This document shows, piece after piece, positions 11,324 to 57,117 of a DNA stretch of 57,273 nt; within the stretch, counting starts at the first letter, position 1; each line of letters begins with the position of its first letter. A program made the translations under genes and the position numbers. The notes beneath the pieces are model-generated. The model made no database searches, was not told where the DNA came from, and saw nothing but the letters and a program-made list of their open reading frames with translations. This stretch comes from an archaeon (lineage in GTDB: Archaea; EX4484-52; GLR71): positions 1 through 57,273 of the forward strand of contig WTCA01000015.1 in assembly GCA_013138805.1 (NCBI GenBank). Reading direction: 5' to 3'.

Positions 11324-11334
11324 AGGTGATGATA

Positions 11335-17257: not shown

Positions 17258-17530
17258 ATGATAACTAAATTCATTACGAAAGGAAAAGGTAAGAGCATGA
17301 AATTTATATCTATAAGAGCTATATTGCTTCTGTTTATTATATGTGGGTCTGTTTTATGTACCATAACTCCTTCAGCTTATGCCTCTGTCGATGATACTAA
17401 GGTCATAGGCGAAATTCCTGCAGGGTTTATTTTGGGTCTGACTGAGAATATCACAATACCTATAGTTATACAACTATTTATTGTAGCTTTTGTGGGGTCT
17501 GTATTATTGATACTTATAATGAAGTTATGA
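17258..17530 (+). CDS. hybrid mini-protein: degenerate leader A + signal peptide + GLTEN anchor module
   Basis: MITKFITKGKGKSMKFISIRAILLLFIICGSVLCTITPSAYA / SVDDTKVIGEIPAGFILGLTENITIPIVIQLFIVAFVGSVLLILIMKL. Confidence 0.75.
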   Translation: MITKFITKGKGKSMKFISIRAILLLFIICGSVLCTITPSAYASVDDTKVIGEIPAGFILGLTENITIPIVIQLFIVAFVGSVLLILIMKL

Positions 17531-31336: not shown

Positions 31337-32209
31337 ATGGTGAATAGCAAGTGCAGGACAGAAGACATGTACGGCATGGTCACCGACAGGCTGATAGCTG
31401 AGATCGAGAAAGGAGGTCTCAGGTGGGTCAAGGGCTGGACTCAGACAGGTCTGCCTATGAACGGTGCCACCAAGACCAGTTACAGAGGCATCAACATGCT
31501 ATGGCTCATGATGGAGATACGGGACAAGGGCTATAAGTCTAACAGGTTCTACACCTACAGGCAGGTCAAGGGACTCAAAGGGCATGTGATCGCAGGGTCT
31601 AAGGGACTGCCTATATTCTTCTACAAGCCGATCGAGATATCTGTTGAGAACAAGGAGACGGGCAAGCAGGAGATCAAGAGGATACCTATGTTGCGCAGTT
31701 TCATCGTGTTCAACCAAGACCAGACATCGCTGAAAGGCATGGATGCTGATGCGGTGAGAGAGCCGGTGGAGATCATCAAGATCTGCGAGGACATAGCAGG
31801 ATGGTCTGACAGTCCCAGAATGATGACTGACAGCTCGGCATATTACATGTCTAGGTGGGATATCATAGGGATTCCAGACATGCAGTCGTTCCGCACTGCT
31901 GAGATGTATTACGCCACGCTGTTCCATGAGATGATCCATAGCACTGGGTCTAAGGGCAGGCTGAACCGTGACGGTATCGTCAAGACCAATGCGTTCGGCT
32001 CAGACATGTATTCAAGAGAGGAGATCATAGCCGAGCTGGGTGCCAGTATACTGTGTGCCAAGGCAGGAATATTTGAGGACAATGTCAGCAACAGCAGTGC
32101 ATATATAGACAGCTGGCTCAGGAGCCTCAAGAAAGATAAGAGATTCATATTCAAGGTGATGAGTCAGGTGCAGGCATCTGTCGACCTCATCACAGGTACA
32201 GGATCGTAG
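31337..32209 (+). CDS. ardC: ArdC-like antirestriction protein (ssDNA-binding N-domain + zincin metallopeptidase domain)
   Basis: N-terminal GGLRWVKGW...PMNGATKTSYRGINMLWL and C-terminal LFHEMIHSTGSKGRLNRD (HExxH) match the ArdC architecture. Confidence 0.8.
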   Translation: MVNSKCRTEDMYGMVTDRLIAEIEKGGLRWVKGWTQTGLPMNGATKTSYRGINMLWLMMEIRDKGYKSNRFYTYRQVKGLKGHVIAGSKGLPIFFYKPIEISVENKETGKQEIKRIPMLRSFIVFNQDQTSLKGMDADAVREPVEIIKICEDIAGWSDSPRMMTDSSAYYMSRWDIIGIPDMQSFRTAEMYYATLFHEMIHSTGSKGRLNRDGIVKTNAFGSDMYSREEIIAELGASILCAKAGIFEDNVSNSSAYIDSWLRSLKKDKRFIFKVMSQVQASVDLITGTGS

Positions 32210-38035: not shown

Positions 38036-39145
38036 ATGATGGAATTTGACTTGAGCAAGAAAGCGACTGATGAAAGGTTACATGAATTTGCTGAGAAGAT
38101 ACAGGCTCTGTCTAGACAGATAGGGTTTAAGGTCTCTGCTAGAGGTTGGGCGTACCAGCTTGAGACAGAACGACTGGTCAACAAGGATGAGTTCGACAAG
38201 GTAGAATCTTGGATCAATAGGTGTAGACGAAATGGTATATTGCCTATAGATTTCACTGCTGAGGAAGAGGGCAGAAAATTCAGCGGTGTCGAGGTTCCAG
38301 AATCTAGGTCACCAAAAAAGTATCTGAGGTCATGGATAGACCAGACCATGAGAGCTGAAAAATGGTATGTACCAGATTGGTGGACGGGTGAAAAGTATTA
38401 TATACAGATGCTGGTCGAGAAAGTAGACCTGAAGACATTATTTATGCCTATATGTGAAGAGTTCCATATCCCTATCGCAACCAGCAAAGGTTGGAGCAGT
38501 ATGTTGCAGAGATCTGAATATGCACGGAGATTCAAGGAAGCTGAGGATAAGGGTCTTAAATGTGTCCTGCTATACTGTGGCGATTTTGACCCTGACGGAC
38601 TCAGGATATCTGAGCATATCAGAAAAAATCTATCAGACCTGAAGAACGTGAGATGGGATGATAGGGTACAAGGATACAATCCTAAGAACCTGATAATAGA
38701 GCGGTTCGGTCTTGAGCATGACTTCATACAGAAACATGGACTGACATGGATAGATAACCTGATCACGGGAAGCGGTTGTGAACTGGCAAGAGTTGTAGAC
38801 GGAAAGATCGTTGCAGGTCTGAACAAGAAACATCAACCCCACAAGAATTTTGGTATGATATATCTTCAGGAGTACCTGAAAAATTATGGGGTACGGAAAT
38901 GTGAAGCTAACGCATTGATCGTGTTGCCAGACATAGCCAGAGAGCTGGTGAAAGATACCATAATCGAGTATCTCGGTACAGGCGCACTGGAAAGGTTCGA
39001 TAATAAGAAACAGAATATTGTGGACAGGTTCAATGATTTCAGGGCTAGGTCAGGTCTGCAGGAATCATTGCAGAATGCATTGGACTTGATAGATGAAGAT
39101 GAAGATGACGCTGAGGATGAGGATGAAGATACTTATGAAATGTGA
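38036..39145 (+). CDS. Top6A/Spo11-like Toprim-domain protein (orphan)
   Basis: MLVEKVDLKTLF (Toprim Glu) and LLYCGDFDPDGLRI (DxDPxG) match the Topo VI-A/Spo11 Toprim signature. Acidic tail. Confidence 0.5.
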   Translation: MMEFDLSKKATDERLHEFAEKIQALSRQIGFKVSARGWAYQLETERLVNKDEFDKVESWINRCRRNGILPIDFTAEEEGRKFSGVEVPESRSPKKYLRSWIDQTMRAEKWYVPDWWTGEKYYIQMLVEKVDLKTLFMPICEEFHIPIATSKGWSSMLQRSEYARRFKEAEDKGLKCVLLYCGDFDPDGLRISEHIRKNLSDLKNVRWDDRVQGYNPKNLIIERFGLEHDFIQKHGLTWIDNLITGSGCELARVVDGKIVAGLNKKHQPHKNFGMIYLQEYLKNYGVRKCEANALIVLPDIARELVKDTIIEYLGTGALERFDNKKQNIVDRFNDFRARSGLQESLQNALDLIDEDEDDAEDEDEDTYEM

Positions 39146-43136: not shown

Positions 43137-43307
43137 TCATTTCATTCTTTTCTTGCCCTTGTTCAGGTAGTACATGCCTATGCCTAGTATAGGAAGCACT
43201 ATGAGAACAAAGATACCGTCAGCGACTGTCAGGTTCTCGGTAACGCCAAGGATGATACCGGACGGTATCTCACCTATGGCTTTTGTATCTTCTACGACAG
43301 ATGACAT
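43137..43307 (-). CDS. GLTEN-module mini-protein (56 aa, hand-translated)
   Basis: MSSVVEDTKAIGEIPSGIILGVTENLTVADGIFVLIVLPILGIGMYYLNKGKKRMK. Confidence 0.7.
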   Translation of the reverse strand: MSSVVEDTKAIGEIPSGIILGVTENLTVADGIFVLIVLPILGIGMYYLNKGKKRMK

Positions 43308-43338
43308 GATAGATCACATATAAAGATTAAGATTCTAT

Positions 43339-43375
43339 AAAAAAAAAACAAAAAAGGTCGGGTCTCTGAGACCCG
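43339..43375 (-). terminator. hairpin (CGGGTCTC/GAGACCCG) followed by a long T-tract on the minus strand
   Basis: Directly downstream of the stop of 43386..43562. The minus-strand RNA reads ...CGGGUCUCAGAGACCCGACCUUUUUUGUUUUUUUUUU. Confidence 0.7.
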
Positions 43376-43385
43376 AAAGGTTCAC

Positions 43386-43562
43386 TTATTTTACAAGCTT
43401 ACCTTTCTTTGCATTTCCGTAGAAATACATACCGCCACCGATGACAGCAAGCAGGATACCGAATGTTATTGCTGTACCGATGCTGACATTCTCAGTCATA
43501 CCAAGAATTGCACCTGCTGGGATCTCTCCCAGTGCTTTAGTTCCGTTCAGAGTTTCAGACAT
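43386..43562 (-). CDS. GLTEN-module mini-protein (58 aa, hand-translated), candidate abundant membrane/structural protein
   Basis: MSETLNGTKALGEIPAGAILGMTENVSIGTAITFGILLAVIGGGMYFYGNAKKGKLVK. Has its own TATA region and a strong terminator. Confidence 0.75.
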   Translation of the reverse strand: MSETLNGTKALGEIPAGAILGMTENVSIGTAITFGILLAVIGGGMYFYGNAKKGKLVK

Positions 43563-43622
43563 AGTAGTTCACCAAATATTGCGACTGATCATGAGTCACT
43601 GTATATCAGTTGGGCACCAGAG

Positions 43623-43659
43623 TTTATAAAACAGTATCAGCACTATACTGTTTTATAAA
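43623..43659. promoter_or_regulatory. perfect 15-bp inverted repeat built from two TATA boxes (TTTATAAAACAGTAT-N7-ATACTGTTTTATAAA)
   Basis: Arms at 43623-43637 and 43645-43659. Lies between the mini-protein genes. CAGTAT recurs at 43661-43666. Confidence 0.6.
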
Positions 43660-43670
43660 GCAGTATAGTT

Positions 43671-43832
43671 CTAGCGGTTTCCAGCCCTGTCTTTCCTGCC
43701 CATCAGCAGTATCAGACCACCCACAGCCAATAGTATGATAAAGGTAGCTGTGAACAGGTCGACAGACTCTGTGACACCAGTCATGAACCCACCCACTGTG
43801 TTGCTGAAATCTAGCATGAACGTATTTTCCAT
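43671..43832 (-). CDS. GLTEN-module mini-protein, divergent variant (53 aa)
   Basis: Track ORF 43671..43865. An internal ATG gives MENTFMLDFSNTVGGFMTGVTESVDLFTATFIILLAVGGLILLMGRKDRAGNR. Confidence 0.55.
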   Translation of the reverse strand: MENTFMLDFSNTVGGFMTGVTESVDLFTATFIILLAVGGLILLMGRKDRAGNR

Positions 43833-43895
43833 CTGATACACCTCAAAGAGTAATACCCTTTTCAAAGGATGGTCATTGACCAGCCTTGACCTTTA

Positions 43896-45446
43896 TTATG
43901 ACTTTCTATTAGATGCTTCTGAAAACACGAATATACTGAAACCGATTATGATAGCTAATATACCCATATAGATAGCATCTGATATAGCTAAGTTCTCAGT
44001 CAGACCCAGTATGGCTCCTGCCGGCACCTCACCTATCGCCTTGGTCGCCGTGATGGTGGCTATGGATTCAAGGTATGCCTGATAAGACTGATATTCACTG
44101 GTTACAGCCCTCGTATCTGTGCAGTTGATGTTGCCTGCAGTGTCATTGACGCAGGCATAATATGTATATGACCCATCTGCACCGAATGTCTTGACCGTCT
44201 CAAAGCCAGTCACGGTCTCGTTGGTGCCATTCCAGTTCAGCGTGACTGTATCTATGTCAGCATCTATGACTGACAGGTTGACTGTCATCGAAGCTGTCTG
44301 GACAGTCGAGCTGTCGTCAGGCGTAGGGGCTATGAAATCTATGGTGGGCACTATCGTATCGACAGTGAAATATATGGTCTCATCCTCAACCAGACCCGCA
44401 TAGGTCACTGAATACATATATATCTTATTTATACCTTCAACAGCTGTCAATGTAGAGTTATAGATATCCCACCTGAACCCTGTATCCATATTATAATATT
44501 TATTTCCGCTGAGGAGATAATGATACCCATCAATGTCATACACTGTAGTGTCCAGATACATGCGTGATACTACACCTTCATCTATGTGCCCTGCATCACT
44601 CTGCCATGAGCCTGTTGTACTATTATACATGTATCCTACCGCTACATACGGTGCGAAACTACTGGCTGAAATGAGAAGATATTGGACATCATTGAACTTG
44701 AATGCTTCAGGCTGTGCATAATTGACCCCTGCAGGTGCCTCGGGGCTAGGTCTTATAGAATCATCAGACTGCCAAGCAGTCCCAGTCCAGTTGAAACCAA
44801 ATACATTACTGTCAGACCTATATATGAGCATGTAACTGACATCATCTATATCAAACACTACTGGATCTGCATGCCTTGTGTATGTCCCATAAGCACCATC
44901 TAACCCAGACACTATCGCACTGTCTTCCTGCCAAGAGCTACCAGTCCAGTTATATCCTATAAGATCATTGGTCTCATTGCCTTTTATGAAGTACCATATA
45001 TCTGATATATTGAATACAGTCTGACCTGATGGAACTGTGTTAGATTCATAAGTATAATATGTACCTAGACCAGTCACTATAGCAGTATCAGACAGCCAAG
45101 CTGTCCCAGTCCAGTTATATCCATGAAAACTGCCACCATATCCTTGAATAAGATACTGTGTACTGTCTTTATACAGACCTGTATAACTAGATATATACTG
45201 ACCTGTCACACCTGCCCTCTTAGACTCATCAGCCAGCCACTTGATAGCATAAGTATATTCATTATCGTTAAGCCTATATTTGACATCATCATAGCCTATT
45301 GATGAACTTAGAGATAGAGGTATTGATACAGTACTATAAGATATGTTCTGAGGGCTGTCTATCGTCAATGCAGGCACTGCATACGCAGGCATGGACAGCA
45401 ATAAGATTGCTGTCATAAGAGCAGATAGGACAATGCTATATCTCAT
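43896..45446 (-). CDS. secreted repeat protein (GYNWTG-x-WQSD repeats) with GLTEN anchor, adhesin/receptor-binding-like
   Basis: Signal peptide ends ...SMPAYAVP. About 6 repeats of the F/GYNWTGTAWQSD..I..GL type. C-terminus KAIGEVPAGAILGLTENLAISDA-TM-NRKS. Confidence 0.8.
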   Translation of the reverse strand: MRYSIVLSALMTAILLLSMPAYAVPALTIDSPQNISYSTVSIPLSLSSSIGYDDVKYRLNDNEYTYAIKWLADESKRAGVTGQYISSYTGLYKDSTQYLIQGYGGSFHGYNWTGTAWLSDTAIVTGLGTYYTYESNTVPSGQTVFNISDIWYFIKGNETNDLIGYNWTGSSWQEDSAIVSGLDGAYGTYTRHADPVVFDIDDVSYMLIYRSDSNVFGFNWTGTAWQSDDSIRPSPEAPAGVNYAQPEAFKFNDVQYLLISASSFAPYVAVGYMYNSTTGSWQSDAGHIDEGVVSRMYLDTTVYDIDGYHYLLSGNKYYNMDTGFRWDIYNSTLTAVEGINKIYMYSVTYAGLVEDETIYFTVDTIVPTIDFIAPTPDDSSTVQTASMTVNLSVIDADIDTVTLNWNGTNETVTGFETVKTFGADGSYTYYACVNDTAGNINCTDTRAVTSEYQSYQAYLESIATITATKAIGEVPAGAILGLTENLAISDAIYMGILAIIIGFSIFVFSEASNRKS

Positions 45447-45477
45447 GGTATCTCACTGACTGTATATTTGACACGGC

Positions 45478-45495
45478 TGTTTATAAGGTAGCATC
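45478..45495 (-). promoter_or_regulatory. recurrent promoter motif (minus strand GATGCTACCTTATAAACA)
   Basis: 32 nt upstream of the ATG at 45446. Overlaps the stop codon of 45494..46987. Confidence 0.6.
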
Positions 45496-46987
45496 AGCGT
45501 CTCTTAGACCATGCGGTGTACCCGAATATCCCGAACCCTATGATGGTCAGGATTATGACCGCATTGATGCCGTCTGCCACAGACACGTTCTCAGTCAGAC
45601 CAAGGATCGCTCCGGCAGGCAGTTCACCCAATGCTTTGGTAGAGTCTATGGTGCTCTGCACCTCAGCTTCAGGTATGGTGTCCACAGTGAATGAGACAGA
45701 TGAGTAGCCCATGTCATCTGATGTGTTGGTAGCATAGACGACAATGTCATTGGCACCTTCCTGTGCAGTGATGGTCTTGTTGAGGAATGCCTTGTCCGCT
45801 TCAAGCCATGCCATGCGCAGGTATGTATCAGTATCATCCCAATAGCTGAAATAGATATTGTCATCTGAATCAGTCACAGATGCCAGACCCAAGCCAGTAG
45901 CAGAATCACTGTCCACTGTATTGATAGTCCATGATGCACCATCCCATACAGCCACACTCAGGTTACCTGTCGTCTCAGCCGTAAATCCTATGTATATATT
46001 GTTGTCAGAATCCATGGTCATAGATGAATGATCACCAGATATAGGAGTCACAGTCTCTATGTTCCATGTACCGTTCCACTTAGCGAACTTAAGGTCTGCA
46101 TTGGTGACATCATGGTAACTTATGTAGATATCGCCTTCAGGATGAACTGCAGTAGATGTGATCTCACCTACACTGCCTGTGCTGTCGACAGTCTCAGTGT
46201 TCCATGTACCGTTCCACTTAGCGAACTTGAGGTCAAGGTTGGTAACATCATAGTAGCTTATGTATACCTCGCTGTTATCAGGGCTGGTTGCGATTGACGT
46301 ATATATCCCTACACTGCCTGCGCTGTCCACAGTCTCTATGTTCCAGCTACCGTTCCACTTGGCATATTTAAGGGCAGTATTAGGGGTGTCTCTGTAACTT
46401 ATATGTATGGTGTCATCAGAGTCTATCTCCATAGCAGGATAGTCACCTACATTGCTTGTGCTGTCCACAGTCTCTATGTTCCAGCTACCGTTCCATTTAG
46501 CCAGATTAAGAGTTCCTGCAGTCCCGTCAGTGTAAGCGATATATATGTAATCGTTAGAATCAGTTGCTACTGCACTGAACAGACCGACGTCACCGTCACT
46601 GTCAACAGTCTCCAATGTCCAACTGCCGTTCCATCTAGCTATCTTGAGGTCTCCACCTACACTGTCATAATAGCCTATAAAGACATTACCTTCAGAATCT
46701 GTCGCAATCCCTGTAAATTCCTGCACTTCAGATACATTGTCACCAGTCATGGTAACCCATGTATCTCCTGCTCCTGAATATGTGAACAGGCTGATGTTAT
46801 CTGCATCATTCAATGAATAGTATGCATCACTCAGTGTCTCGTCAGCTGACCAGTTAAGGTCGATTGTCGCATTGTCATAGGTGGTCGCAGTCGGGCTGTC
46901 TATGGTGACAGTCGGGACTGCATATGCAGACATGGACAGTAACATGAATGTTACGAGGATGACAGGCAATATATTACTGTATTTCAT
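45494..46987 (-). CDS. secreted beta-propeller-like repeat protein with GLTEN anchor
   Basis: About 7-8 repeats of ~44 aa (L-K-F/Y-A-K-W-N-G-S/T-W-N-I/T-E-T-V-D-S...Y-I-S-Y). The N- and C-terminal ~60-90 aa are near-identical to 47035..48324. Confidence 0.8.
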   Translation of the reverse strand: MKYSNILPVILVTFMLLSMSAYAVPTVTIDSPTATTYDNATIDLNWSADETLSDAYYSLNDADNISLFTYSGAGDTWVTMTGDNVSEVQEFTGIATDSEGNVFIGYYDSVGGDLKIARWNGSWTLETVDSDGDVGLFSAVATDSNDYIYIAYTDGTAGTLNLAKWNGSWNIETVDSTSNVGDYPAMEIDSDDTIHISYRDTPNTALKYAKWNGSWNIETVDSAGSVGIYTSIATSPDNSEVYISYYDVTNLDLKFAKWNGTWNTETVDSTGSVGEITSTAVHPEGDIYISYHDVTNADLKFAKWNGTWNIETVTPISGDHSSMTMDSDNNIYIGFTAETTGNLSVAVWDGASWTINTVDSDSATGLGLASVTDSDDNIYFSYWDDTDTYLRMAWLEADKAFLNKTITAQEGANDIVVYATNTSDDMGYSSVSFTVDTIPEAEVQSTIDSTKALGELPAGAILGLTENVSVADGINAVIILTIIGFGIFGYTAWSKRR

Positions 46988-47018
46988 AAGGACTCACTGT
47001 ATATATATTTGACATGAG

Positions 47019-47036
47019 TATTTATAAGATAGCATC
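47019..47036 (-). promoter_or_regulatory. recurrent promoter motif (minus strand GATGCTATCTTATAAATA)
   Basis: 32 nt upstream of the ATG at 46987. Overlaps the stop of 47035..48324. Confidence 0.6.
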
Positions 47037-48324
47037 AGCCTCTCTTAGACCATACCGTGAACATGAACATCCCGAAACCTAAGATAACAGCCAGTATGCC
47101 TATACGGATCCCGTCTGCCACAGACACGTTCTCAGTCAGACCAAGGATCGCTCCGGCAGGCAGTTCACCCAATGCCTTGGCAGAGTCTATGTTGCTCTGC
47201 ACCCCAGTATCAAGGATGGCGTCCACAGTGAATGAGACAGATGAGTAGCCCATGTCATCTGATGTGTTGGTAGCATAGATGACCACTGTATTCTGTCCTT
47301 CAATACCAGTTATTGTTGTATTGATAAAATTATAATCAAGAGATTGTGTAATATTATATCCTTTAAATGTTCCTGTATAATCCAATGATAAAAAATACAT
47401 CGTATCATTCAGTTCATAGATAACTGGTGATGTGTATATATTTGCTGTTGCAAGACCTCCAATAATAGCCGTATCGCTCTGCCAAGATGTACCTGTCCAA
47501 TTATATCCATAAAAATTGCCACTAGATTCACCTGATATAAGATACCAGTACCCATTCATCTCAAATACATTGGGTGTTGAAATTTGACCAATATCACTAA
47601 GTCCATTTACGATAGCAGTATCGCTTTGCCATGTATTGCCTGTCCAATTATAACCATTGAAAGTACCAGCTTGGTTACCTTGAATTGCATACCATACATT
47701 ATCTTTCTCAAATACAGTTATTGCACTGTTAGTTGAACTGGATATCCCACTTATCACAGAAGAATTGGTCTGCCATATAGTCCCATTCCATGTAAAGCCA
47801 TATCTTGTTGCACCGTCACCAGTACCCATTATCATGTGCAACTGACTGTCCCAATAAAAAGTTTCTGGAACAGCCGAACTTCTACCACCGATTAAACTAT
47901 AAAGACCGTTATCTATGCTACCATTAAGTTGCCATACAGCCCCATCCCATGTAAGTGCATCTTTAGTGGAATCCAGACCACCGTATAAAAAACCCCCAAG
48001 AATAAGATGCCATTGACTGCCATAATAAAATACCGTTCCAGATTGTTGTGCATTTGCGACCATGCTACTGAGGATATAATCATCGCTTGTCCAATTACCT
48101 GTATATATTAAATTTCCTTCAGCTAAACTGACATTGCTGGCATCATTCAATGAATAGTATGCATCACCTAAGGTCTCGTCAGCTGACCAGTTAAGGTCGA
48201 TTGTCGCATTGTCATATGTGGTCGCAGTCGGGCTGTCTATGGTGACAGTCGGGACTGCATATGCAGACATGGACATTAACATGAATGTTGCGAAGATGAC
48301 AGGCAATATATTACTGTATTTCAT
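47035..48324 (-). CDS. secreted repeat protein (YNWTG-x-WQSD repeats) with GLTEN anchor
   Basis: Same ends as 45494..46987, but the core is of the 43896..45446 repeat type. Confidence 0.8.
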   Translation of the reverse strand: MKYSNILPVIFATFMLMSMSAYAVPTVTIDSPTATTYDNATIDLNWSADETLGDAYYSLNDASNVSLAEGNLIYTGNWTSDDYILSSMVANAQQSGTVFYYGSQWHLILGGFLYGGLDSTKDALTWDGAVWQLNGSIDNGLYSLIGGRSSAVPETFYWDSQLHMIMGTGDGATRYGFTWNGTIWQTNSSVISGISSSTNSAITVFEKDNVWYAIQGNQAGTFNGYNWTGNTWQSDTAIVNGLSDIGQISTPNVFEMNGYWYLISGESSGNFYGYNWTGTSWQSDTAIIGGLATANIYTSPVIYELNDTMYFLSLDYTGTFKGYNITQSLDYNFINTTITGIEGQNTVVIYATNTSDDMGYSSVSFTVDAILDTGVQSNIDSAKALGELPAGAILGLTENVSVADGIRIGILAVILGFGMFMFTVWSKRG

Positions 48325-48356
48325 AAAAATCCCTGTACGATATATTTATTGTCTAT

Positions 48357-48374
48357 CATTTATAAGGTAGCATC
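48357..48374 (-). promoter_or_regulatory. recurrent promoter motif (minus strand GATGCTACCTTATAAATG)
   Basis: About 33 nt upstream of the ATG at 48324. Immediately downstream of the stop of the 48377 gene. Confidence 0.6.
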
Positions 48375-48376
48375 AA

Positions 48377-50863
48377 TCACTTAAACACCAGCAGGAATCC
48401 ACCTATGACCAGTCCCATGACCACTATGGCGACCGCAAGGTTAGTGTTCTCGACAATGCCTGTCACCAGACCGCCTGCTTTGGCAGTGGCATCATATCCC
48501 TTGCTGTGCGTCAGTATGGTCTCAGGGATGAATATGGTCAGGTTACGTGCATTGCTGACTGTACCTGTACCGAACTCGTCCCTGCACTGTCCCACAGCGC
48601 TCCAGACATCACCGTACCCAGTGCTACCCGATGGTATGGTGACCAGATTAACTGACGTGTCAGGCAACATGAATCCTGACCCAGACAGGGATCCCACCAC
48701 TGCACCGTTCCTTGTCACGTTCCATACAGCAGTCAGCAATGCACCCGCATCTGCGTCAGTGCAGTGCATGTGCAGGTATATGTTATTGTATGTGTATGCC
48801 GTATCATTGTCGAACGGGTCGAACGCTATGTCTGTCATCGCAAACGCAATGATCTCGGCAGGACTGTTGATTATATATGTATAGTCAGATATGTCGACAG
48901 GACTGATGTCTGTACCGTCACCGCAGGTCGTATACGCCCTGACAAACTGACTGCCACTGAATGTATGTTCAGGCACTGTCTTGACCAGTGTGGACTCGCT
49001 GTCATTGACTGTCATGCTACCCGACAGGTCAGGCAATAACGATATGCCTGCATAGATGTCCCAGTAAGCTGTCAATGTCTCCCCAGAATCTGAGTCTGAG
49101 CATGTCACGGTCAGGTTCAGAGTCTCATTGTTATACATGCTGTCAGGGTACAGGTCATTCTCAGATACCACAGGCACTGCATTGACGACAGTGAAATCAT
49201 ATAGTGCACTGGATGACTGGTGCCCTGCAGTATCATTGACGTAGTACCTGTAATAGACGATGTCGCCCTTGGCATATCCCGTATGGCTCATGACATGCCA
49301 GTATTCGTCCACTGAATATGTCAAGATCGTGTAATTGGTCGTCTGGTTGTACTCGAACAGGACAGTGTCTATGTCAGTCTCTATGACGGTCACGTTGAAC
49401 ATAGTATCTTGGTCAGTGGTGGGTGTGGCATTGATGGTCACTGCAGACAAGACTGGATATGTATTGTCTATCCTCATGGTACTGCTTAATATATCTGATG
49501 ATACTGCGATGCCGTCGGTCACGTTGGCAAGGACATAATAGTCAGCGTCTGGCACAGTATTCGTATCCCATTCATAGTAGCAGGTACCGTAGCTGGCGTT
49601 CAGCTCAAACACGGACAGGATCGTCCTGTTCGGGCTGAGGTCATCGTTCAGAAGATAGTAACTGCAATTTACCCAGTCCTGATTAGGGTCTGACACAGTC
49701 GTGTTGATCCATATGATGCCTGTCTCGGATATGCCCGTACCTGAGTATATGGTAGGAAACCCACCCCTGACACTGTCGGTATGCAACGTGAGTGCAGGTG
49801 GCAGGTTATCCAGCTGTCCTATCAGGTCATATATGACTTCGCCGGCATTATTATATACAGTGTCATTGACCTTGACCCTGAACTCACCCTGAAACCCGTT
49901 AAAGAATGTCAGGTGATGATTGCCACAGGATCCGGTCACGTCATTCCAAGTGACACCGTAATCTGCAGATAACTGATACTTGTCAGGGCATGAGATACCA
50001 TCGGTAGCCCAGACATCCCAGCTCTGTTCAAGGTTATTGGCATTGAAGCTGGTACCGATAGCATACATGGTATCTGTCACCTCGATGCCGTTGAAGGTGC
50101 CATTCTCGTCAGTGACGAAATTGAGGTTGTAATATGTCCCTTCATCATACAGGTCACCCACGCTGACTGCATCAGCAGGTGTGCAGACATCACTCAGCCT
50201 TACGTCTCCTGTGACATATGACTTATTGCATCCGTACACCACAAAGTCTATGGCTGTGGACACTGAGTTCTCGTCCGCCTGAAACCTGAACACGTAACTT
50301 GTATTGGCTGACACGGTCACGTTATTGATCTGCACCTTGACTATGTTACCCTGATACGCATTGATGGATGTGTCCTTGGATACGTTATCGGGATGAAAAT
50401 TGAATGTGGTCGGCATCCATTCATGAGCACCGGTCAGGTTAAGGCTGACCCGCACTGTCGTATTGTCAGGATTGCCCGCCACGAAACCGCAGTCCTTGTT
50501 GAGCCACCCGTCACTGTCCAGTGCAGGGTTCAGTGACCCGTTGATGAAAGACCAGTTGGCTTGGTATGAGTCTATGATGTCATATGCACGGTATGATACA
50601 CTGCATGACGACAGGTCTAGGTTAGGATCTGACAGGTTCCATCTAGCGTACAGCCCGCCCGTGACCGTCTCGTTCAGGTCGATGGGTGAATAGTAATGAT
50701 CTGTAAGGGCATAGTCAGATATGACAGGTGCAGTATTGTCCACCTCTATGCTGTAATATTCAGTCTGAGTATTGAGACCTCCTATGACTATGGCAGAGGC
50801 TGATGAAGACAATGACAGTAATACTATCAGGCTGACTGCTAAATATATAGTCATCTTATCCAT
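48377..50863 (-). CDS. large secreted surface protein with divergent GLTEN-like anchor
   Basis: Track ORF 48377..50872 (GTG). ATG at 50863. Signal peptide ends ...SSSASA. C-terminus KAGGLVTGIVENTNLAVAIVVMGLVIGGFLLVFK. Confidence 0.75.
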   Translation of the reverse strand: MDKMTIYLAVSLIVLLSLSSSASAIVIGGLNTQTEYYSIEVDNTAPVISDYALTDHYYSPIDLNETVTGGLYARWNLSDPNLDLSSCSVSYRAYDIIDSYQANWSFINGSLNPALDSDGWLNKDCGFVAGNPDNTTVRVSLNLTGAHEWMPTTFNFHPDNVSKDTSINAYQGNIVKVQINNVTVSANTSYVFRFQADENSVSTAIDFVVYGCNKSYVTGDVRLSDVCTPADAVSVGDLYDEGTYYNLNFVTDENGTFNGIEVTDTMYAIGTSFNANNLEQSWDVWATDGISCPDKYQLSADYGVTWNDVTGSCGNHHLTFFNGFQGEFRVKVNDTVYNNAGEVIYDLIGQLDNLPPALTLHTDSVRGGFPTIYSGTGISETGIIWINTTVSDPNQDWVNCSYYLLNDDLSPNRTILSVFELNASYGTCYYEWDTNTVPDADYYVLANVTDGIAVSSDILSSTMRIDNTYPVLSAVTINATPTTDQDTMFNVTVIETDIDTVLFEYNQTTNYTILTYSVDEYWHVMSHTGYAKGDIVYYRYYVNDTAGHQSSSALYDFTVVNAVPVVSENDLYPDSMYNNETLNLTVTCSDSDSGETLTAYWDIYAGISLLPDLSGSMTVNDSESTLVKTVPEHTFSGSQFVRAYTTCGDGTDISPVDISDYTYIINSPAEIIAFAMTDIAFDPFDNDTAYTYNNIYLHMHCTDADAGALLTAVWNVTRNGAVVGSLSGSGFMLPDTSVNLVTIPSGSTGYGDVWSAVGQCRDEFGTGTVSNARNLTIFIPETILTHSKGYDATAKAGGLVTGIVENTNLAVAIVVMGLVIGGFLLVFK

Positions 50864-50868
50864 GTATA

Positions 50869-52989
50869 TCACTCAAGCTTGCATCTTTCTCCTACAGCCA
50901 CGTCACAGTATGCTGTGCTGGTATATATGACATGATACTGTACAGTCTCAATATATGTTATCGGGAACCCTGTACCCAATAGGTCTTCAAAGTCTATGTA
51001 CCAGTCACGCCATATGAAATGACCAGTACCAGTATCTCTCACAGTCATCAATGATTTCGGTATAGCAAAACCGAACAGGACATCTGTGGCAGGTCTGTCA
51101 AATTCCATATTGAAAACATACTCACCGTTACCTGTATCATATATGCCTGCAGTCACATTGAAATTGGTCACCTGTGCAGGTGTCAGGACATGATATTCAC
51201 CGCCTGAATAATACCCAAAATAGATCTTCTTGCACACTGCACCCTTGCAGAAATTGATGCCGTCTATCTGGATATCATAGGTCAGACCACACAGGTCACC
51301 GTAAGTATGATCATCCGTCGCAGACAGCTCAACCGTGTAATCACCGTCATCCCAACCACTCGTATCTATGACATGCCCGAAACTGAATATGGTGGTGTTC
51401 CAGTCATCGGTGTAATTGCTGTGCTTGACCGCATCGTACTGGTCAGTCACGTTGAGGAGTATACGGTACAGGTTAGCGTCATTGACTGATGCGTCCCATG
51501 TCACGCTGTCCGCCACGACTGTGCTGTTGTCATAGGCTGGATATGAACCCAGTGTCCAGTCTGGATATACGGTATCGATGGTGACATTGTAATATGCAGA
51601 CCATGAACCGTAACCGTTACCTAGAGTATCATTGGCTCTGACATGCCAGTGATACAGACCGTCACCCAGCTCGTCCACGGCTGTCAGTGCATTGTACAGG
51701 TCATAGATGCTATCTATGTCAGTGGTTATGTTGCCCGCCTCAAAACCGGTGCTGTTGGATACCTGCAACTGATATGCGTCCACACTGGTCTGGTCATATG
51801 GCTGTGTCCAAGTAAAGTTAGTCTGGTTGACATTGGTATGGTCAGTGTCATAGGGCAACAGGTTGACCGGCATTGCCGGTGGCAATGTATCCACGCTGAA
51901 ATGTACAGTGGCAGATATGTTCTGGTTGTCAGCCGTGTCATTGCACATGAAATATACCTGATGACTGCCCTGTGTCATGGTAGAGTTCTCACCGTAATAA
52001 TCGTCACCGTACCCAGCGTAAGGCAGGTGTATGTAGCCAACACTGTCAAGGTCATACCAGCAGGTGTCCAAGTTGATGTCTATGGCGGTCACGTTAAAGG
52101 CGATTGTGGTTGACGGGTATGTCGTGTTGAACGGTGAATTGACGGTCAGTACAGGATATATTGTATCTACTGTCAGCGTATATGCACCTGACCAGCTACC
52201 AAAACCGTTACCCTCAGTATCATTGGCACGGACTCGCCAATGATAGATGCTGTCGTCTAACGATTCAGGAGCAGTCACTGTATAATCACTGTCTGATATG
52301 TCATCCCTGTCAAGGGTCAGGTTACCAGCCTCAAACCCTGTGCTGTTAGATACCTGCAACTGATACACGTCAATGCCTGTCCTGTCATACGGTTCAGTCC
52401 AGTCAAGATATGGCGTGTCAGTATTGATGAGAGACCCGTTATCTGGCGATACCAATACGGGCGCTTCAGGAGGTGCAATGTCTGGAGGGCGTGTGACATC
52501 AAGATATATATGGTCATAACTCACACTGACACCTATCATGTATGCCTGAACTTCCAAGCCGTTCAGCTCTGAGCCAGTATCGACACTGCAGTTGCCTGTC
52601 AGGTTGCAGGAGTACAGTCCAGTAAAGCCCACTGCAGTCATACAAGACCCGCACTGGCTATGTGACCCAGTCACATTCGTATATATATATGTGTAAGCAT
52701 TCGGGTGCGTAAAATCAATCTCGACGTATATCATGACTGATGGCAATACCTCTCCTGCTTCGACGGTACCGTTCCAACCATGGACTGTTATGTTCTCACT
52801 GTCAGCAAGAGAGTACAGGACACCATCTGACTGGTTGACTCTAGATGTCACATCAGTTGCACCACCGTCATAGGCTGTCGCATCGGTAGGTATCCATGTC
52901 TCAGATACTGCCATGACAGGGTAGGATAGTGACAGGATAGCTAAGGCTACTATGACATAGACCCATCGTGATCTTGATACCCTGTACAT
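50869..52989 (-). CDS. large secreted protein with duplicated ~100-aa Ig/FN3-like modules
   Basis: Track ORF to 52992 (TTG). The ATG at 52989 is preceded by GAGGTGA. The YQLQVSNSTGFEAGN...YHWRVRANDTEGNGFGSWS module occurs twice. No TM anchor. Confidence 0.75.
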   Translation of the reverse strand: MYRVSRSRWVYVIVALAILSLSYPVMAVSETWIPTDATAYDGGATDVTSRVNQSDGVLYSLADSENITVHGWNGTVEAGEVLPSVMIYVEIDFTHPNAYTYIYTNVTGSHSQCGSCMTAVGFTGLYSCNLTGNCSVDTGSELNGLEVQAYMIGVSVSYDHIYLDVTRPPDIAPPEAPVLVSPDNGSLINTDTPYLDWTEPYDRTGIDVYQLQVSNSTGFEAGNLTLDRDDISDSDYTVTAPESLDDSIYHWRVRANDTEGNGFGSWSGAYTLTVDTIYPVLTVNSPFNTTYPSTTIAFNVTAIDINLDTCWYDLDSVGYIHLPYAGYGDDYYGENSTMTQGSHQVYFMCNDTADNQNISATVHFSVDTLPPAMPVNLLPYDTDHTNVNQTNFTWTQPYDQTSVDAYQLQVSNSTGFEAGNITTDIDSIYDLYNALTAVDELGDGLYHWHVRANDTLGNGYGSWSAYYNVTIDTVYPDWTLGSYPAYDNSTVVADSVTWDASVNDANLYRILLNVTDQYDAVKHSNYTDDWNTTIFSFGHVIDTSGWDDGDYTVELSATDDHTYGDLCGLTYDIQIDGINFCKGAVCKKIYFGYYSGGEYHVLTPAQVTNFNVTAGIYDTGNGEYVFNMEFDRPATDVLFGFAIPKSLMTVRDTGTGHFIWRDWYIDFEDLLGTGFPITYIETVQYHVIYTSTAYCDVAVGERCKLE

Positions 52990-53019
52990 CAACTTTCACC
53001 TCTTTCGTCCTTTCAATCG

Positions 53020-53424
53020 TCAGCCTTCATCTCTCCGAAGATACCTGTCTGGCGGTCTGTCCTGTTGCCTGTCTTCATACACAGGTTCCGGTTCCGGTTC
53101 AGCCACTTCATCATCACCGTCAGACATCCGTTTAAGTCTCTCTATCAGGTTTTGGTCTATCCAGTCCACACCTTGCATTACTATAGGATATATGTTCAAT
53201 ATAGCTTTAATGCCCCTGTAATATACCCAGAAGAATAGGTATATCATCCCCAGTGCGACTGCTATGACAGTTATCAATATGATCCAGTACGCCAGTGACG
53301 TGACAAAGAAAGACACTGCCTGCGTAGATGTCTGGATGAATGTTGACAGTGAATCAAAAGATGTACTGACCGCCTTGAAGCTCAGGTCACTCACTGTCAC
53401 ATTGTCAATAGCCATATTTGACAC
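53020..53424 (-). CDS. membrane protein
   Basis: 134 aa with 2 TM helices and a PEPEP tail. Confidence 0.6.
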   Translation of the reverse strand: MSNMAIDNVTVSDLSFKAVSTSFDSLSTFIQTSTQAVSFFVTSLAYWIILITVIAVALGMIYLFFWVYYRGIKAILNIYPIVMQGVDWIDQNLIERLKRMSDGDDEVAEPEPEPVYEDRQQDRPPDRYLRRDEG

Positions 53425-53430
53425 CCCTCG

Positions 53431-54249
53431 TCATCTCTGTGTCATCCTCTTGGACAGGAACCTGACGCCTATCAGGATAGATAACAGCAGTGCAGGGAAC
53501 AGGATGTACTTGACCAGTATGAGCAGTATGGTTATGGTCACATAATATACCAGTGCCACTATGTTGATCAGGTACTGGCTTATCTTCTGGATGATGACCA
53601 GCCAGCTGTTGACCGTCTTCTTCTGGCAGACTAGGACGCTCTCTGACGCATCAAACACTGAGTAGTCATATATAGAATCCTTGACTGTGTATATGACTTC
53701 AAGGGTGACATCATAGTGGGGGACGAACAGGCAGAAATCTGAGCTGATACCATTTGCGTCAGGCAACGGTAACTGATAAGCCATGTAATAACTGCCCGTG
53801 CTGGCATATGTAGATCCCTGAGATATGTCTATCACATATTTCGCAGACATACCGCACCTGATATATACAGGATTGTACACAGACGTGTTATAGGTACCTG
53901 TACTGTCCGTGAACTTGAACAGCACCAGCCTGTTCTTGCCGGTCACGTCCATGACTATGAACTGATATGGCGGTGCGGATATCAGTGTATCATTGGCGAT
54001 CTCATTGGCACCAAAGTCATATACTGTGTCACCCGTACCACTGAATACCATGGCAAGGTCAAACAGCCAGTCATACTCGTCATATGTCCGTGCTATGCTG
54101 TCCAGCGAGTCGTCGTCTATGTACTCAGCAGACTCATTGAACGGCGTGGCATAGACTGATGTGGCTGAGGCTGACAATGACAGCAGTATGATGAACAGCA
54201 ATGCTGTGACAGTATATGATCTTTTTGTTACATCTTTAAATGTTATCAT
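53431..54249 (-). CDS. membrane protein (signal anchor + C-terminal TM pair)
   Basis: 272 aa. ATGA overlap with the upstream gene. Confidence 0.65.
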   Translation of the reverse strand: MITFKDVTKRSYTVTALLFIILLSLSASATSVYATPFNESAEYIDDDSLDSIARTYDEYDWLFDLAMVFSGTGDTVYDFGANEIANDTLISAPPYQFIVMDVTGKNRLVLFKFTDSTGTYNTSVYNPVYIRCGMSAKYVIDISQGSTYASTGSYYMAYQLPLPDANGISSDFCLFVPHYDVTLEVIYTVKDSIYDYSVFDASESVLVCQKKTVNSWLVIIQKISQYLINIVALVYYVTITILLILVKYILFPALLLSILIGVRFLSKRMTQR

Positions 54250-54959
54250 ACCAATACCCCCTGCAACGTAGTCCAGCCCTCGATTAGCACCTTGATGACG
54301 ACAGCCAGTATGATCGCCTTGCCTAGACCCTGACCAGTACCTACCATGACACCTATCACGGCAAGGAGCAGGAATATCTGAAGCGCTGACTTATACTCGT
54401 TGTAATAATACCTGAACGGATTGACCGTCGCCTCATCAATGCTGAAGTCATATGAATATATGCCCTTGTCAAGCACGTCCAGCTCACCCACGACAATCTG
54501 CTGTGTCAATGAGCTGATGTCAGGTGTCTGGTTATATGCCACCCACCTATAACTGCCTTTGATCAGGTATGTGTCATAGGTACCGAAAGATGATATGTTG
54601 ACGCAGGACTGACCATCCCTGTATATGTTGTGGTACGCTTCCTGCGGTGTGTATTCCTTGGTGAAGTTAAGTGACAGTAGCTTACCTATGCTCTTGCCCC
54701 AGTCATACCCGTCATCATATGCATCCACGTCAGGAGCTACTCTCTTGATGAACACGATGTCCATGAAATCGTTGTAATAAGGTCTGTCTCTCAGCTCGGA
54801 CATGTTGACAGATGACGCATTGACGACGTAGCCGTATACGCAGATCTCAGTGTAGTTGGCGTCTGTGACACCTGTCGACACTGCTGACACTGTGCATGGC
54901 ATCATAATGGTCAGTGCCAGTATCATAAGACCTATGACTATCAGATTATACCTTGACAT
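54246..54959 (-). CDS. secreted/membrane protein
   Basis: 237 aa. Signal peptide ends ...CTVSAVS. C-terminal TM helices. Confidence 0.65.
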   Translation of the reverse strand: MSRYNLIVIGLMILALTIMMPCTVSAVSTGVTDANYTEICVYGYVVNASSVNMSELRDRPYYNDFMDIVFIKRVAPDVDAYDDGYDWGKSIGKLLSLNFTKEYTPQEAYHNIYRDGQSCVNISSFGTYDTYLIKGSYRWVAYNQTPDISSLTQQIVVGELDVLDKGIYSYDFSIDEATVNPFRYYYNEYKSALQIFLLLAVIGVMVGTGQGLGKAIILAVVIKVLIEGWTTLQGVLV

Positions 54960-54960
54960 A

Positions 54961-57117
54961 TCAGATCCGACCTCCCTTTTTCCTGAACAGGTTGAACAGG
55001 TCGATAAAGATGTAGAATATTGTCACCAGCAACGCAATCGAAAATATTATCATCATTATGTTGGCAAAGGGTGACCACAGCACCGAGTCGACGTACAGTA
55101 TGGTGGCATGTATCTCCTCAGCCCAGTATACGTTATCGCTCTCCACACAGGTCGATCTTCGGTATACCTTGGGCACTGCCTCATGGCAAGTGTTGATATC
55201 CACGCAGGTCTGGGTCTTCTGACTATTGACGCAGTCTGACCATTGCGTACATTCATACTGTGGCTGGCATGTGGTGTACAATATATAGGTCTGCAGGTCA
55301 CCTGACCCTACCAGAGACGTATTGATGCCAGTCACAGGGTCATATCCTTCAACATCACAGGTCTGCGTGGTGTCTGGCTTATATATCTCAGTACCGCAAG
55401 CGTTCAGGTCAGTGACTGTCCGTGTCTGGATACCCAGCGAGCACAGGCTCCATGCACCAGTGTACCAGTTTTCAGTGCAGGTCAATGGCGACACAGTATC
55501 TACCTTAGATGTCGAGTATACCGTGAACCCTGTAGACCCTGCAAATAGCATGTCCTGATTTTCAGTCAAAGGTTCCACTATGTTATATTCACCGTCCAGA
55601 TTGGTATTGAGTCCTACATTGGGCAGAGACAGGTACCCTGCTACATGCTCAGGGAAATCCTCGTAACCGACAGTGTACCTGTATATGATTATACCCTCAT
55701 CATTCTGGAATATGACCTCTGGTATGTTACCGAACATGGTCGACTTGCCCATTGTAGAGATGTCTGTGAGCGTTATCGTCATGCTACCTGAATATACACC
55801 GCCGTAAATCATGTTATAATTATTGTCATCAGTGATAAATGATATCTCGGCACCGTCTGAACGCACGTCAAAGTTATCGACATCTATATTGTTATATGTC
55901 ACCTGCGGTTCATATATGTCTGCACCTATTATTGTCTCTGAAAGGTTATTGTATACGTCATCCACCTTGACAGATATCAGTCCTGACTTGGCAAGGCTAT
56001 CTATATAGAACAGAAAATTGACCTCTGAATAACCATCAAAATTAGTGTCGCCTACACCCACACCGTAGATGCCTTCCAGATAATCTGCACTGACATTGCC
56101 TGACTCAGTGAACTCAAATATCTGGCTGATCGTACTTGAGCTTATCCTGTATCCGTACACACCGCACAGTGCCCCCAGACTGTAATTCTCGCACATGGAA
56201 TATATCACGTCAACATAGTCATAATCGACGAACTTACCTATGTCTGCACCTGTTATGACACCGCCCTGAGCTATATACGGCAGGACTGGTATAGTATCAT
56301 TGGACTGCTCGACAAGGCTGGTATCCAACAGTGCCACGTTACCGCTCGTCACACCTACCTGTGCATCTCCAGTATGAACTATTATCACGTTGTCATCATA
56401 GTTATCATATATGAGATTGATGATGCCTGTGTAATCTGAATTGACCTTATTGACCAGCCCTGTAGCCTTGTCTACCCTTGCCACTGTAGTAGATGTCGCA
56501 TAGTATAGGTACCCTGAATCCTGTGACCCGTCAATGCTGACCAGACCAGTCACAGGCACTGAGTACAGTTCTTCCAGCTGATATGACGAGAACCGTGAAG
56601 GCTCATCTTCGTCTGTCTGGATATATGCCAGTATATTGATGTGACCATCACCAGTCTGAGGTTCTGCAGATGATATAGATACATGAGCATAACTGCCATC
56701 TGTCGTAATCATGTCAAATACATTATATTGCGTGTTGCAGTTGCTCAGGGTTATATCCCAATCTACCTGAGTCAGCAGGCTATCGTTTATATTTGAGCCT
56801 ATGACCTTATCTGTAATAGGTAAGCTACCGAAAGATATATGGTTCATCAGAGATACATTAAGCATGTCCAGATGCCGATTAGCAGAGCATCCGCCTGTCC
56901 TAAGTATCTGAAACGAGAAGTCATCAATGCTATCAGAATCTATATCAAAATAATATACAGATGTAGTGGTCGCCAGATTGATATCTGAATGTATATCTAT
57001 GTCTCCGTACAGATAGCCTACATCAATGGATGCAGACCCGACAGGACATATCATGAGAAGTATCAATAATGCCACAAAAAATGATTTACATACATTGGAT
57101 GTCATGACGATAACCAT
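54961..57117 (-). CDS. large surface protein: FG-GAP/VCBS-like Ca-binding loops, two Cys-rich TSP1-like repeats, C-terminal TM anchor
   Basis: Signal peptide ends ...CPVGSA. DIDSDSIDD and DTNFDGYSE loops. CTENWYTGAWSLCSLGIQTRTVTDLNACG and CTQWSDCVNSQKTQTCVDINTCH repeats. A TM helix and RKKGGRI tail. Confidence 0.7.
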   Translation of the reverse strand: MVIVMTSNVCKSFFVALLILLMICPVGSASIDVGYLYGDIDIHSDINLATTTSVYYFDIDSDSIDDFSFQILRTGGCSANRHLDMLNVSLMNHISFGSLPITDKVIGSNINDSLLTQVDWDITLSNCNTQYNVFDMITTDGSYAHVSISSAEPQTGDGHINILAYIQTDEDEPSRFSSYQLEELYSVPVTGLVSIDGSQDSGYLYYATSTTVARVDKATGLVNKVNSDYTGIINLIYDNYDDNVIIVHTGDAQVGVTSGNVALLDTSLVEQSNDTIPVLPYIAQGGVITGADIGKFVDYDYVDVIYSMCENYSLGALCGVYGYRISSSTISQIFEFTESGNVSADYLEGIYGVGVGDTNFDGYSEVNFLFYIDSLAKSGLISVKVDDVYNNLSETIIGADIYEPQVTYNNIDVDNFDVRSDGAEISFITDDNNYNMIYGGVYSGSMTITLTDISTMGKSTMFGNIPEVIFQNDEGIIIYRYTVGYEDFPEHVAGYLSLPNVGLNTNLDGEYNIVEPLTENQDMLFAGSTGFTVYSTSKVDTVSPLTCTENWYTGAWSLCSLGIQTRTVTDLNACGTEIYKPDTTQTCDVEGYDPVTGINTSLVGSGDLQTYILYTTCQPQYECTQWSDCVNSQKTQTCVDINTCHEAVPKVYRRSTCVESDNVYWAEEIHATILYVDSVLWSPFANIMMIIFSIALLVTIFYIFIDLFNLFRKKGGRI

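Follow-up and report, generated by a model that had tools for sequence, protein, structure and literature searches.

Why should nine proteins of very unequal size, encoded on a single contig, all end in the same short C-terminal module? The contig in question, WTCA01000015.1 of GenBank assembly GCA_013138805.1 (labelled "archaeon"; locus tags GQ472_), is treated here as a whole, and "the window" denotes its full 57,273 nucleotides; the contig is proposed to represent, in full or nearly so, a virus-like element that is probably archaeal and has not been cultivated. A first-pass annotation had described nine proteins, three of them mini-proteins, sharing a C-terminal motif, a transmembrane (TM) helix and a basic tail, and had taken the module to be either a new sorting or processing signal or an element by which large spike or adhesin proteins co-assemble with small subunits. 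The shared module is real: by six-frame scan, nine open reading frames (ORFs) of the window terminate in it and no more, seven on the minus strand and two on the plus strand, and comparison with shuffled sequences confirms it. The preferred explanation, which we hold to be about evenly poised between right and wrong, is that the mini-proteins are single-helix major coat or envelope proteins and that the module is a matching anchor by which spikes are inserted into that layer.

The strict pattern GE[ILV]P[AS]G.[IV]LG[LVM][TS]EN has seven matches in the window against a mean of 0.0 in 100 shuffles, and the loose core G[LVMI][STV]E[NS] has nine against a mean of 1.07. The copies, first described under one motif, fall into two subtypes. 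Type A, present in seven ORFs, has the consensus K-x-x-G-E-[ILV]-P-[AS]-G-x-[IVL]-L-G-x-[TS]-[ED]-N, followed by 6-8 residues, a TM helix and a short basic tail. Type B, a distinct and divergent sub-family with the consensus G-G-x-x-T-G-[VIL]-x-x-x, is carried in the window by a mini-protein of 53 amino acids (aa) and by a protein of 831 aa. The motif, a TM-like segment after it and a position at the extreme C-terminus are common to all nine copies; the basic tail of the original description is weak (1-2 Lys) in four.

When the window and its relatives are taken together, 31 distinct module sequences are available (22 of type A and nine of type B), and the module is C-terminal in all 31. The residues G, E, P, G, L, G, E and N of the motif are invariant and spaced as G-x4-G-x3-G, and the TM helix of the module is itself conserved at one Ile and at G-x-G positions. 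Spacing of the G-x3-G type is typical of helix-helix contact surfaces where TM helices pack together. The sequon T-E-N-x-[ST] is frequent in the module without being invariant, and the N is retained where the sequon is lost, so that glycosylation alone does not account for the motif. Among the window paralogues the module DNA is 57-82% identical, with 3-18 synonymous codon differences; the conservation is that of a protein sequence and not of a DNA repeat.

The mini-proteins, named here A1, A2 and B after their modules, are genuine genes under strong purifying selection. No protein of the lineage is as well conserved as mini A1, which is 91-98% identical in relatives L001, L007, L009 and L010, as against 24-80% for other shared proteins; the corresponding values in relatives are 73-95% for mini A2 and 54-87% for mini B. 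Pairwise with relatives, the synonymous and non-synonymous codon differences in mini A1 are 18:0, 15:3, 19:3 and 17:1. Such identity, combined with changes that are almost purely synonymous, is what one would expect of a structural subunit in dense packing, and mini A1 is a candidate for the role of major coat or envelope subunit. A hydropathy scan gave one TM-like segment per mini-protein, and none has a signal peptide. The AlphaFold 2 (AF2) model of mini A1 is a single helix over residues 16-52 that begins right after the invariant Pro, with a mean predicted local distance difference test score (pLDDT) of 70. Net charge over the first 30 residues ranges from -2 to -4 among the three (-2 in A1, -4 in A2), and over the last 12 from +3 to +5 (+4 in A1, +5 in A2). 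By the positive-inside rule, the acidic N-terminal half and basic tail give a predicted topology with the motif on the outer side of the membrane in the mini-proteins, as in the large carriers. The open frame of mini B (P0010 in the protein search) extends up to a TTG at 43865.

Directly 3' of the mini A1 stop, read on the minus strand at 43340-43386, lies a GC-rich hairpin, GGGTCTCAGAGACCC, followed by T6-G-T10, and a T-rich, TATA-like sequence stands immediately upstream of mini A2. The arrangement suggests a strong terminator after A1, with transcription starting anew before A2. TATA-like AT-rich boxes also precede the three mid-size spike genes.

The trio closes a minus-strand block (43137-57117) of 12 consecutive genes, all 12 of which encode a signal peptide and/or TM segments. 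The order of their products is 718, 237, 272, 134, 707, 831 (type B), 429, 497 and 516 aa (all three type A), then minis B, A1 and A2. The trio order B, A1, A2 is kept in every relative examined, where it likewise ends a block of secreted or membrane proteins; mini B is first of the trio in L001, L007, L009 and L010. In L010 a module-bearing gene of 282 aa stands between mini B and mini A1, and in L001 a 281-aa carrier follows the trio. The relatives have the same 5' genes, a largest protein with a type B ending, and one to three type A carriers of 281 to 1183 aa, and the upstream gene order of the block is the same in L001 and L012. Types A and B each occur in both mini-proteins and large proteins in every element for which the relevant ORFs are available, and type B recurs as a pair, one mini-protein and the largest protein, in every relative for which both ORFs are available.

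Two further observations concern this block. Just upstream of mini B in two relatives (L007 9677-9778; L008 155-256) is the frame Y-K-A-I-G-E-I-P-A-G-A-I-L-D-K-M-G-D-N-Q, containing the fragment YKAIGEIPAGAILDKMGDNQ, a truncated type A module, apparently all that is left of a carrier gene since lost. The genes for the 707-aa protein, which has no anchor, and the 831-aa protein, which has its own signal peptide and a type B anchor, overlap by 4 bases (48377-52992, minus strand), and in relatives each of two ORFs (1084 aa, L007 730-3984; 1524 aa, L012 11847-16421) matches both proteins by itself; the difference could have arisen by fission or fusion of genes or through an expanded array of Ig-like repeats.

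The large carriers of the block look like surface proteins. The 516-, 497-, 429- and 831-aa proteins each have a Sec signal peptide with an A-x-A site and a C-terminal TM segment. The 516-, 497- and 429-aa proteins are paralogues with a common N-terminal signal peptide and first domain and a common C-terminal region, between which lie differing repeat arrays. The 516-aa protein has 13 sequons and sub-threshold matches to PKD_4 and Big_13; the 497-aa protein (P0017, 86 bits against the module profile) has weak propeller-repeat matches in the Pfam scan; the 831-aa protein has 28 sequons and 12 Cys, and its homologues in relatives, which are 799, 1084 and 1524 aa long, share the type B ending. 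The AF2 model of the 429-aa protein has a propeller core mostly at pLDDT 75-93. Its top Foldseek matches are the lectin propellers RSL, AFL and PHL, which are fucose-binding, together with GH43/62 (E 3e-8 to 1e-6; template-modelling scores 0.3-0.5), and matches in the viral structure library include tail-fibre and kelch-like proteins. On the model, the fold class of this ectodomain is clearly a propeller, lectin-like by fold but not in any assignable sugar specificity. In the relatives, LamG/DUF2341 and Ig-like domains are joined to the same tail, e.g. precomputed Pfam matches to Laminin_G_3 and DUF2341 in the 1183-aa carrier of L010.

Sequons of the form N-x-[ST] number 115 in 4427 aa of nine secreted or anchored proteins (from 43896-57117, minus strand, and 11326-11988, plus strand) versus 13 in 6126 aa of 23 other window proteins. 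The densities, 2.6 versus 0.21 per 100 aa, differ 12-fold, an excess that is consistent with heavily N-glycosylated extracellular proteins of an archaeal system.

Outside its own small lineage the module appears to have no relatives. No family in Pfam or NCBIfam, including the archaeosortase CTERM models at E<=1, was matched by the module in scans of the nine carriers, and no pilin family was matched. A PHROG scan of the mini-proteins and six large structural proteins gave nothing meaningful (none below E=0.098), a PDB profile search with the module gave chance TM matches only, and Foldseek with the mini-protein model against the PDB gave 0 matches, as one would expect of a lone helix. Among 50,697 phage records (a collection without OP413839, an ANME-1 spindle virus), megablast and tblastn found no match, nor did tblastn find pleolipovirus or other archaeal-virus relatives in the set of phage and archaeal-virus records. 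A word-indexed search of 5.8 billion proteins yielded 13 small proteins. The proposed hidden Markov model search, run with HMMER and a profile of 13 sequences against 1.84 billion representative proteins, gave 13 matches, all at E<=1e-10 and none between 1e-10 and 1e-3, and every match that was traced sits on the window contig or on related contigs. With the mini-protein alignment as query, IMG/VR, 185,579 GTDB species genomes and the JGI metagenomes gave pattern matches only, none confirmed as module relatives. The related contigs reach 57, 71 and 97 kb and come mostly from South China Sea Site-F cold-seep metagenomes (samples identified via PMC9357000), with a further relative in run SRR3715698. 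The module recurs outside the window's own element, in at least five related ones, albeit of a narrow lineage, and as far as these collections go it is an orphan that does not extend beyond this small lineage of elements from seep sediments.

Table 1. Position, strand and features of the module-bearing genes, followed by the other genes of the block and of the window that are discussed
Feature	Position	Strand	Description
Mini A1	43386-43562	-	58 aa; short acidic N-terminus, K-A-L-G-E-I-P-A-G-A-I-L-G-M-T-E-N, TM helix, tail KKGKLVK
Mini A2	43137-43307	-	56 aa; G-E-I-P-S-G-I-I-L-G-V-T-E-N, TM helix, tail KGKKRMK
Mini B	43671-43832	-	53 aa; type B N-T-V-G-G-F-M-T-G-V-T-E-S, TM helix, tail GRKDRAGNR
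516-aa spike-like protein	43896-45446	-	Sec signal peptide, repeat region, Ig/PKD-like domain, type A module (about 43896-44045)
497-aa spike-like protein	45494-46987	-	Signal peptide, repeats "KWNGSWNIETVDS", type A module (about 45494-45640)
429-aa spike-like protein	47035-48324	-	Signal peptide, beta-propeller, small beta domain, type A module (about 47035-47181)
831-aa protein (largest carrier)	48377-50872	-	Signal peptide, long Cys- and sequon-rich ectodomain, type B A-K-A-G-G-L-V-T-G-I-V-E-N, TM helix, K
220-aa protein	11326-11988	+	Signal peptide, small ectodomain, type A G-E-I-P-A-G-F-V-L-G-L-S-E-N; outside the main block
90-aa protein	17258-17530	+	N-terminal TKFITKGKG motif merging into a signal-peptide-like segment, then type A module
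Upstream part of block	50869-57117	-	Five genes (707, 134, 272, 237, 718 aa), signal peptide and/or TM; module in 0 of 5
159-aa protein	28471-28950	-	Ends I-P-E-F, TM helix, R-R-L-Q-D-I
ArdC-like protein	31337-32209	+	ArdcN domain (2.7e-31), zincin MPTase-PolyVal domain (2.5e-32)
369-aa protein	38036-39145	+	PHROG 6247 "DNA topoisomerase" (2e-69)

Under the preferred reading the block would be the particle or envelope gene module of the element. Each mini-protein would place a short acidic N-terminus outside and would form one long helix; the Gly-rich segment G-E-I-P-A-G-x-I-L-G-x-T-E-N, with its small-xxx-small spacing, would lie at the outer membrane surface, followed by the single TM helix, and the Lys/Arg tail would lie inside, toward the cytoplasm at first and toward the packaged DNA or the particle lumen later. 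The large proteins would leave by the Sec route, undergo N-glycosylation, and be retained in the membrane through the module, oriented like the mini-proteins. Since their tail would be in effect a copy of a mini-protein, they could pack side by side with the mini-proteins, type A tails next to A1 or A2 and the type B tail next to B, and would thereby be incorporated in the particle surface as glycan-binding spikes. This co-assembly, one of the two possibilities of the first-pass annotation, is favoured by the trio order, the purifying selection, the matched topology, the lectin-like propeller model and the pairing of types A and B. Beyond that fit, we infer that the mini-proteins are abundant structural subunits, that they physically contact the large proteins, and that the resulting structure is a virion and not a vesicle or a cell-surface array. 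Also counted in its favour was that scans of the window proteins detected phage-type accessory genes but no capsid family of tailed-virus or jelly-roll type. A more tentative extension, somewhat doubtful in itself, is that the elements form a new family of large (57-97 kb) archaeal double-stranded DNA viruses with a virion design not seen before: the shell or envelope would consist of three single-helix coat proteins like those of filamentous phages, and changeable lectin-type spikes would enter it through a coat-copy tail, with A and B as compatibility classes that determine which spike neighbours which coat subunit.

Several findings weigh against this reading. Co-variation between the modules of large proteins and the mini-proteins of the same element is weak, amounting to one shared S-to-G change in L007 and an identity of 0.69 versus 0.64-0.67. 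The module region is modelled by AF2 at low confidence both in the mini-protein monomer (pLDDT 57-69) and in the 429-aa protein (pLDDT 28-49). No sequence or fold link was found between the module or mini-proteins and a known capsid or envelope protein. Two carriers, of 220 and 90 aa, are encoded far from the structural block, amid unrelated plus-strand genes. The contig has no terminal direct or inverted repeats, so that it is only putatively complete and putatively viral. The ArdC-like gene would suit a plasmid too, being more usual on conjugative plasmids.

The last two points bear on the alternative that survives best, though we think it unlikely: the same co-assembly would take place with no virion at all, in a plasmid-borne surface array for adhesion or mating, or in plasmid-carrying vesicles, with the mini-proteins as scaffold and the large proteins as adhesins. 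The haloarchaeal plasmid pR1SE reportedly spreads in membrane vesicles studded with proteins. Such an apparatus would agree with the presence of an ArdC-like protein, anti-restriction and single-stranded DNA-binding in type and provided with a zincin domain, with the absence of terminal repeats, and with a block whose proteins are all membrane-bound or secreted, none resembling a soluble capsid protein. It would also agree with the families missing among the window proteins scanned, which include capsid, portal, terminase and packaging families. The same scans detected no integrase family and no conjugation family; that neither a conjugation ATPase nor a relaxase was matched speaks against a plasmid apparatus. 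Genes of phage families (YopX, Dam, phrog_4776, phrog_6247) are a further point against it, although plasmids also carry such genes, and conservation as extreme as that of mini A1 is more usual in the subunit of a capsid-like lattice than in a scaffold for adhesins.

Less probable again is the other possibility raised at the outset, a new C-terminal signal. A host membrane enzyme of the archaeosortase, rhombosortase or signal-peptide-peptidase kind would recognise G-E-I-P-A-G...T-E-N, cut off the TM helix and tail and link the ectodomain to lipid or cell wall, and the mini-proteins would be competitive substrates, regulators or peptide precursors. Several secreted proteins do end in a layout that resembles the archaeosortase and exosortase signals (PGF-, PEF-, VPXXXP-, PIP- and PEP-CTERM), in which a motif precedes a TM helix and a basic cluster. 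The 159-aa protein ends in a tail that was at first called canonical-looking PEF-CTERM, which hints at a host archaeosortase and, if genuine, would suggest one; scored against TIGR03024 it reaches 11.9 bits versus a cut-off of 23 (E=0.2), and the protein is better described as PEF-CTERM-like than as a confirmed member. The remaining evidence points away from a signal. The module matches no CTERM model even at E<=1, and its conserved segment is 14-17 residues long and stands 6-8 residues from the TM helix, whereas known signals are 3-5 residues that abut it. Its TM part is conserved as well. No exosortase, archaeosortase, rhomboid or sortase family was found among the 72 distinct window proteins scanned, a search for a co-occurring enzyme whose scope was the window, and no carriers of a host type were found in the GTDB genomes, the JGI metagenomes or the 1.84 billion representatives. 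The three carriers without cargo, finally, set the module apart from such signals and are the best-conserved genes of the lineage, which is hard to square with a discarded tag. A layout of motif, TM helix and basic tail thus need not mean a sortase signal.

It is very improbable that the module is a generic anchor spread by duplication and recombination among paralogous spike genes, the conserved gene ends serving mainly as handles for ectodomain swapping and the mini-proteins being functionally unrelated (holin- or viroporin-like) or decayed spike remnants: the paralogues of 497, 429 and 516 aa do have conserved ends and variable centres, and the truncated module upstream of mini B does show decay and turnover of carriers, but the mini-proteins are under stronger purifying selection than any other gene and hence are not remnants, the trio order is kept across elements, the module DNA with its many synonymous changes is too diverged for a recombination handle, and conserved residues lie outside the TM core where a plain anchor would not need them.

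Additional information can be garnered from the genes around the carriers. The structural block as a whole has no homologues beyond the lineage. Its five upstream genes are presumed to encode further particle or envelope components; a Big_13 Ig-like domain is found in the 707-aa protein, and the 237-aa protein has homologues only within the lineage (5 proteins). Of the two outlying carriers, the 220-aa ORF begins at 11335 in the NCBI call (217 aa) and is P0024 in the exhaustive search (65 bits), and the 90-aa protein is P0008, with an 82-aa homologue, P0009, on the 71-kb relative. The region 73-26754 (plus strand) contains two sets of ORFs with shared N-terminal peptides. About 20 open with M-(x)-T-R-F-[IM]-T-K-G-[KR]-G-x-G-R-K-V-I-P-x-K-D (16 matches to the strict pattern) and 12 others with M-V-R-[KR]-F-[KR]-S-D-A-Q-R-K-A-V-M; the sequences that follow differ in both sets, and neither peptide was seen in the pieces of related contigs examined. 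The ORF of the 90-aa protein unites the first of these peptides with the GEIPAG module.

Accessory genes of phage or plasmid type in the window include the ArdC-like gene with its zincin domain, YopX, Dam, GNAT acetyltransferases and the PHROG 6247 match; no tRNAs were found in the window. A PHROG "anti-restriction protein" match (7e-66) among 53 scanned window proteins is probably the ArdC-like gene. The 369-aa protein has >2000 homologues, of which the best 120 listed are 55-72% identical, include proteins on contigs of 40-91 kb, and have no Pfam domain; its homologue in L010 (11056-14283) is 1075 aa long with faint intein and LAGLIDADG matches. The protein may belong to the Topo VI-A-like "Mini-A" group of mobile elements (PMC7671362).

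If spikes are indeed plugged into a coat of mini-proteins, a rule readable from sequence would follow, by which a protein ending in the coat module is a virion surface protein of an uncultivated archaeal virus, and the receptor-binding proteins of the lineage could be selected straight from metagenomes. The mini-proteins would then be a class of coat protein without relatives among known capsid proteins, from methane-seep sediments whose hosts may include methane-oxidising archaea. Being compact, the module is also a candidate "display tag" of natural origin for use on archaeal membranes or particles. The practical reach of all this is limited by the restriction of the module to a very small lineage.

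A close precedent among known systems is the tail-capsid junction of SSV19, an archaeal spindle-shaped virus (fusellovirus). There the hydrophobic major capsid protein (MCP) VP1 stacks on a ring made of helical bundles that the tailspike VP4 and the adaptor B210 contribute with their C-termini (PMC9351363). Both systems would have a large, heavily N-glycosylated receptor-binding protein whose C-terminal hydrophobic helical element sits in a layer of small helical MCPs and nucleates or joins the lattice; jelly-roll or HK97-type capsid genes are lacking in SSV19, and no such capsid family was detected here. According to the same account (PMC9351363), VP1 is an 84-residue two-helix hairpin whereas the mini-proteins are single predicted helices of 53-58 residues, and the three-helix bundles of VP4 and B210 are not there described as sequence copies of VP1, whereas here the spike tail is a recognisable homologue of a mini-protein.

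Membership of the mini-proteins in the spindle-virus MCPs proper (VP1 of SSV1 and SSV19, VP21 of His1; two-helix hairpins of about 70-90 residues) was rejected, given their one TM-like segment and the AF2 helix described above; by similarity, too, the PHROG, PDB, tblastn and exhaustive profile searches gave nothing outside the lineage. An ANME-1 spindle-shaped virus (Itzamnaviridae/Tepeuviridae) with the mini-proteins as two-helix capsid proteins was rejected likewise, on the single predicted helix and the lack of a sequence link; the window contig is also unmentioned in the supplements of the paper on that virus. The large carriers of the block resemble pleolipovirus spikes in having a signal peptide and a C-terminal TM anchor, a resemblance of layout only. 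For pleolipovirus core homology, the structural proteins scanned gave no significant PHROG match, and pleolipovirus genomes are 7-17 kb as against 57 kb here.

In size and layout the mini-proteins resemble the inovirus coat proteins pVIII and Pf3, which are about 45-55 residues long and consist of one helix with an acidic outside end, a hydrophobic middle and a basic inside end. The likeness (size, single helix, acidic N-terminal end, basic C-terminal end) is again one of layout only. It extends to the absence of a signal peptide, which the Pf3 coat protein also lacks, and to the adsorption protein pIII, which starts with a signal peptide, binds the receptor through dedicated domains, ends in a TM anchor with a basic tail, and stays in the membrane until assembly; the large carriers share its signal peptide and C-terminal anchor. 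The pIII anchor is not known to be a sequence copy of pVIII. The nine carriers match no coat-protein family in Pfam, scans of the window proteins showed no family of Zot/pI ATPases or secretins, and the genome has at least 57 kb as against the 5-12 kb of single-stranded DNA of inoviruses.

Type IV pili offer a parallel in principle. Minor or modular pilins, some with large added domains, carry the hydrophobic assembly helix of the major pilin and so enter the same polymer, and here too the large carriers would bear the membrane assembly helix of the major subunit. In pilins the helix stands near the N-terminus, behind a class III signal peptide that prepilin peptidase cleaves, whereas the module is C-terminal in all 31 sequences, has no K/R-G cleavage motif right before the hydrophobic segment, and has its run broken by T-E-N. 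Pilin-type processing was rejected on the position of the motif. The large carriers have Sec AxA signal peptides, and no pilin family was matched in Pfam or NCBIfam. What the two would share is a known principle, an accessory protein that carries the assembly helix of the major subunit, and the module described here would be a variant of it.

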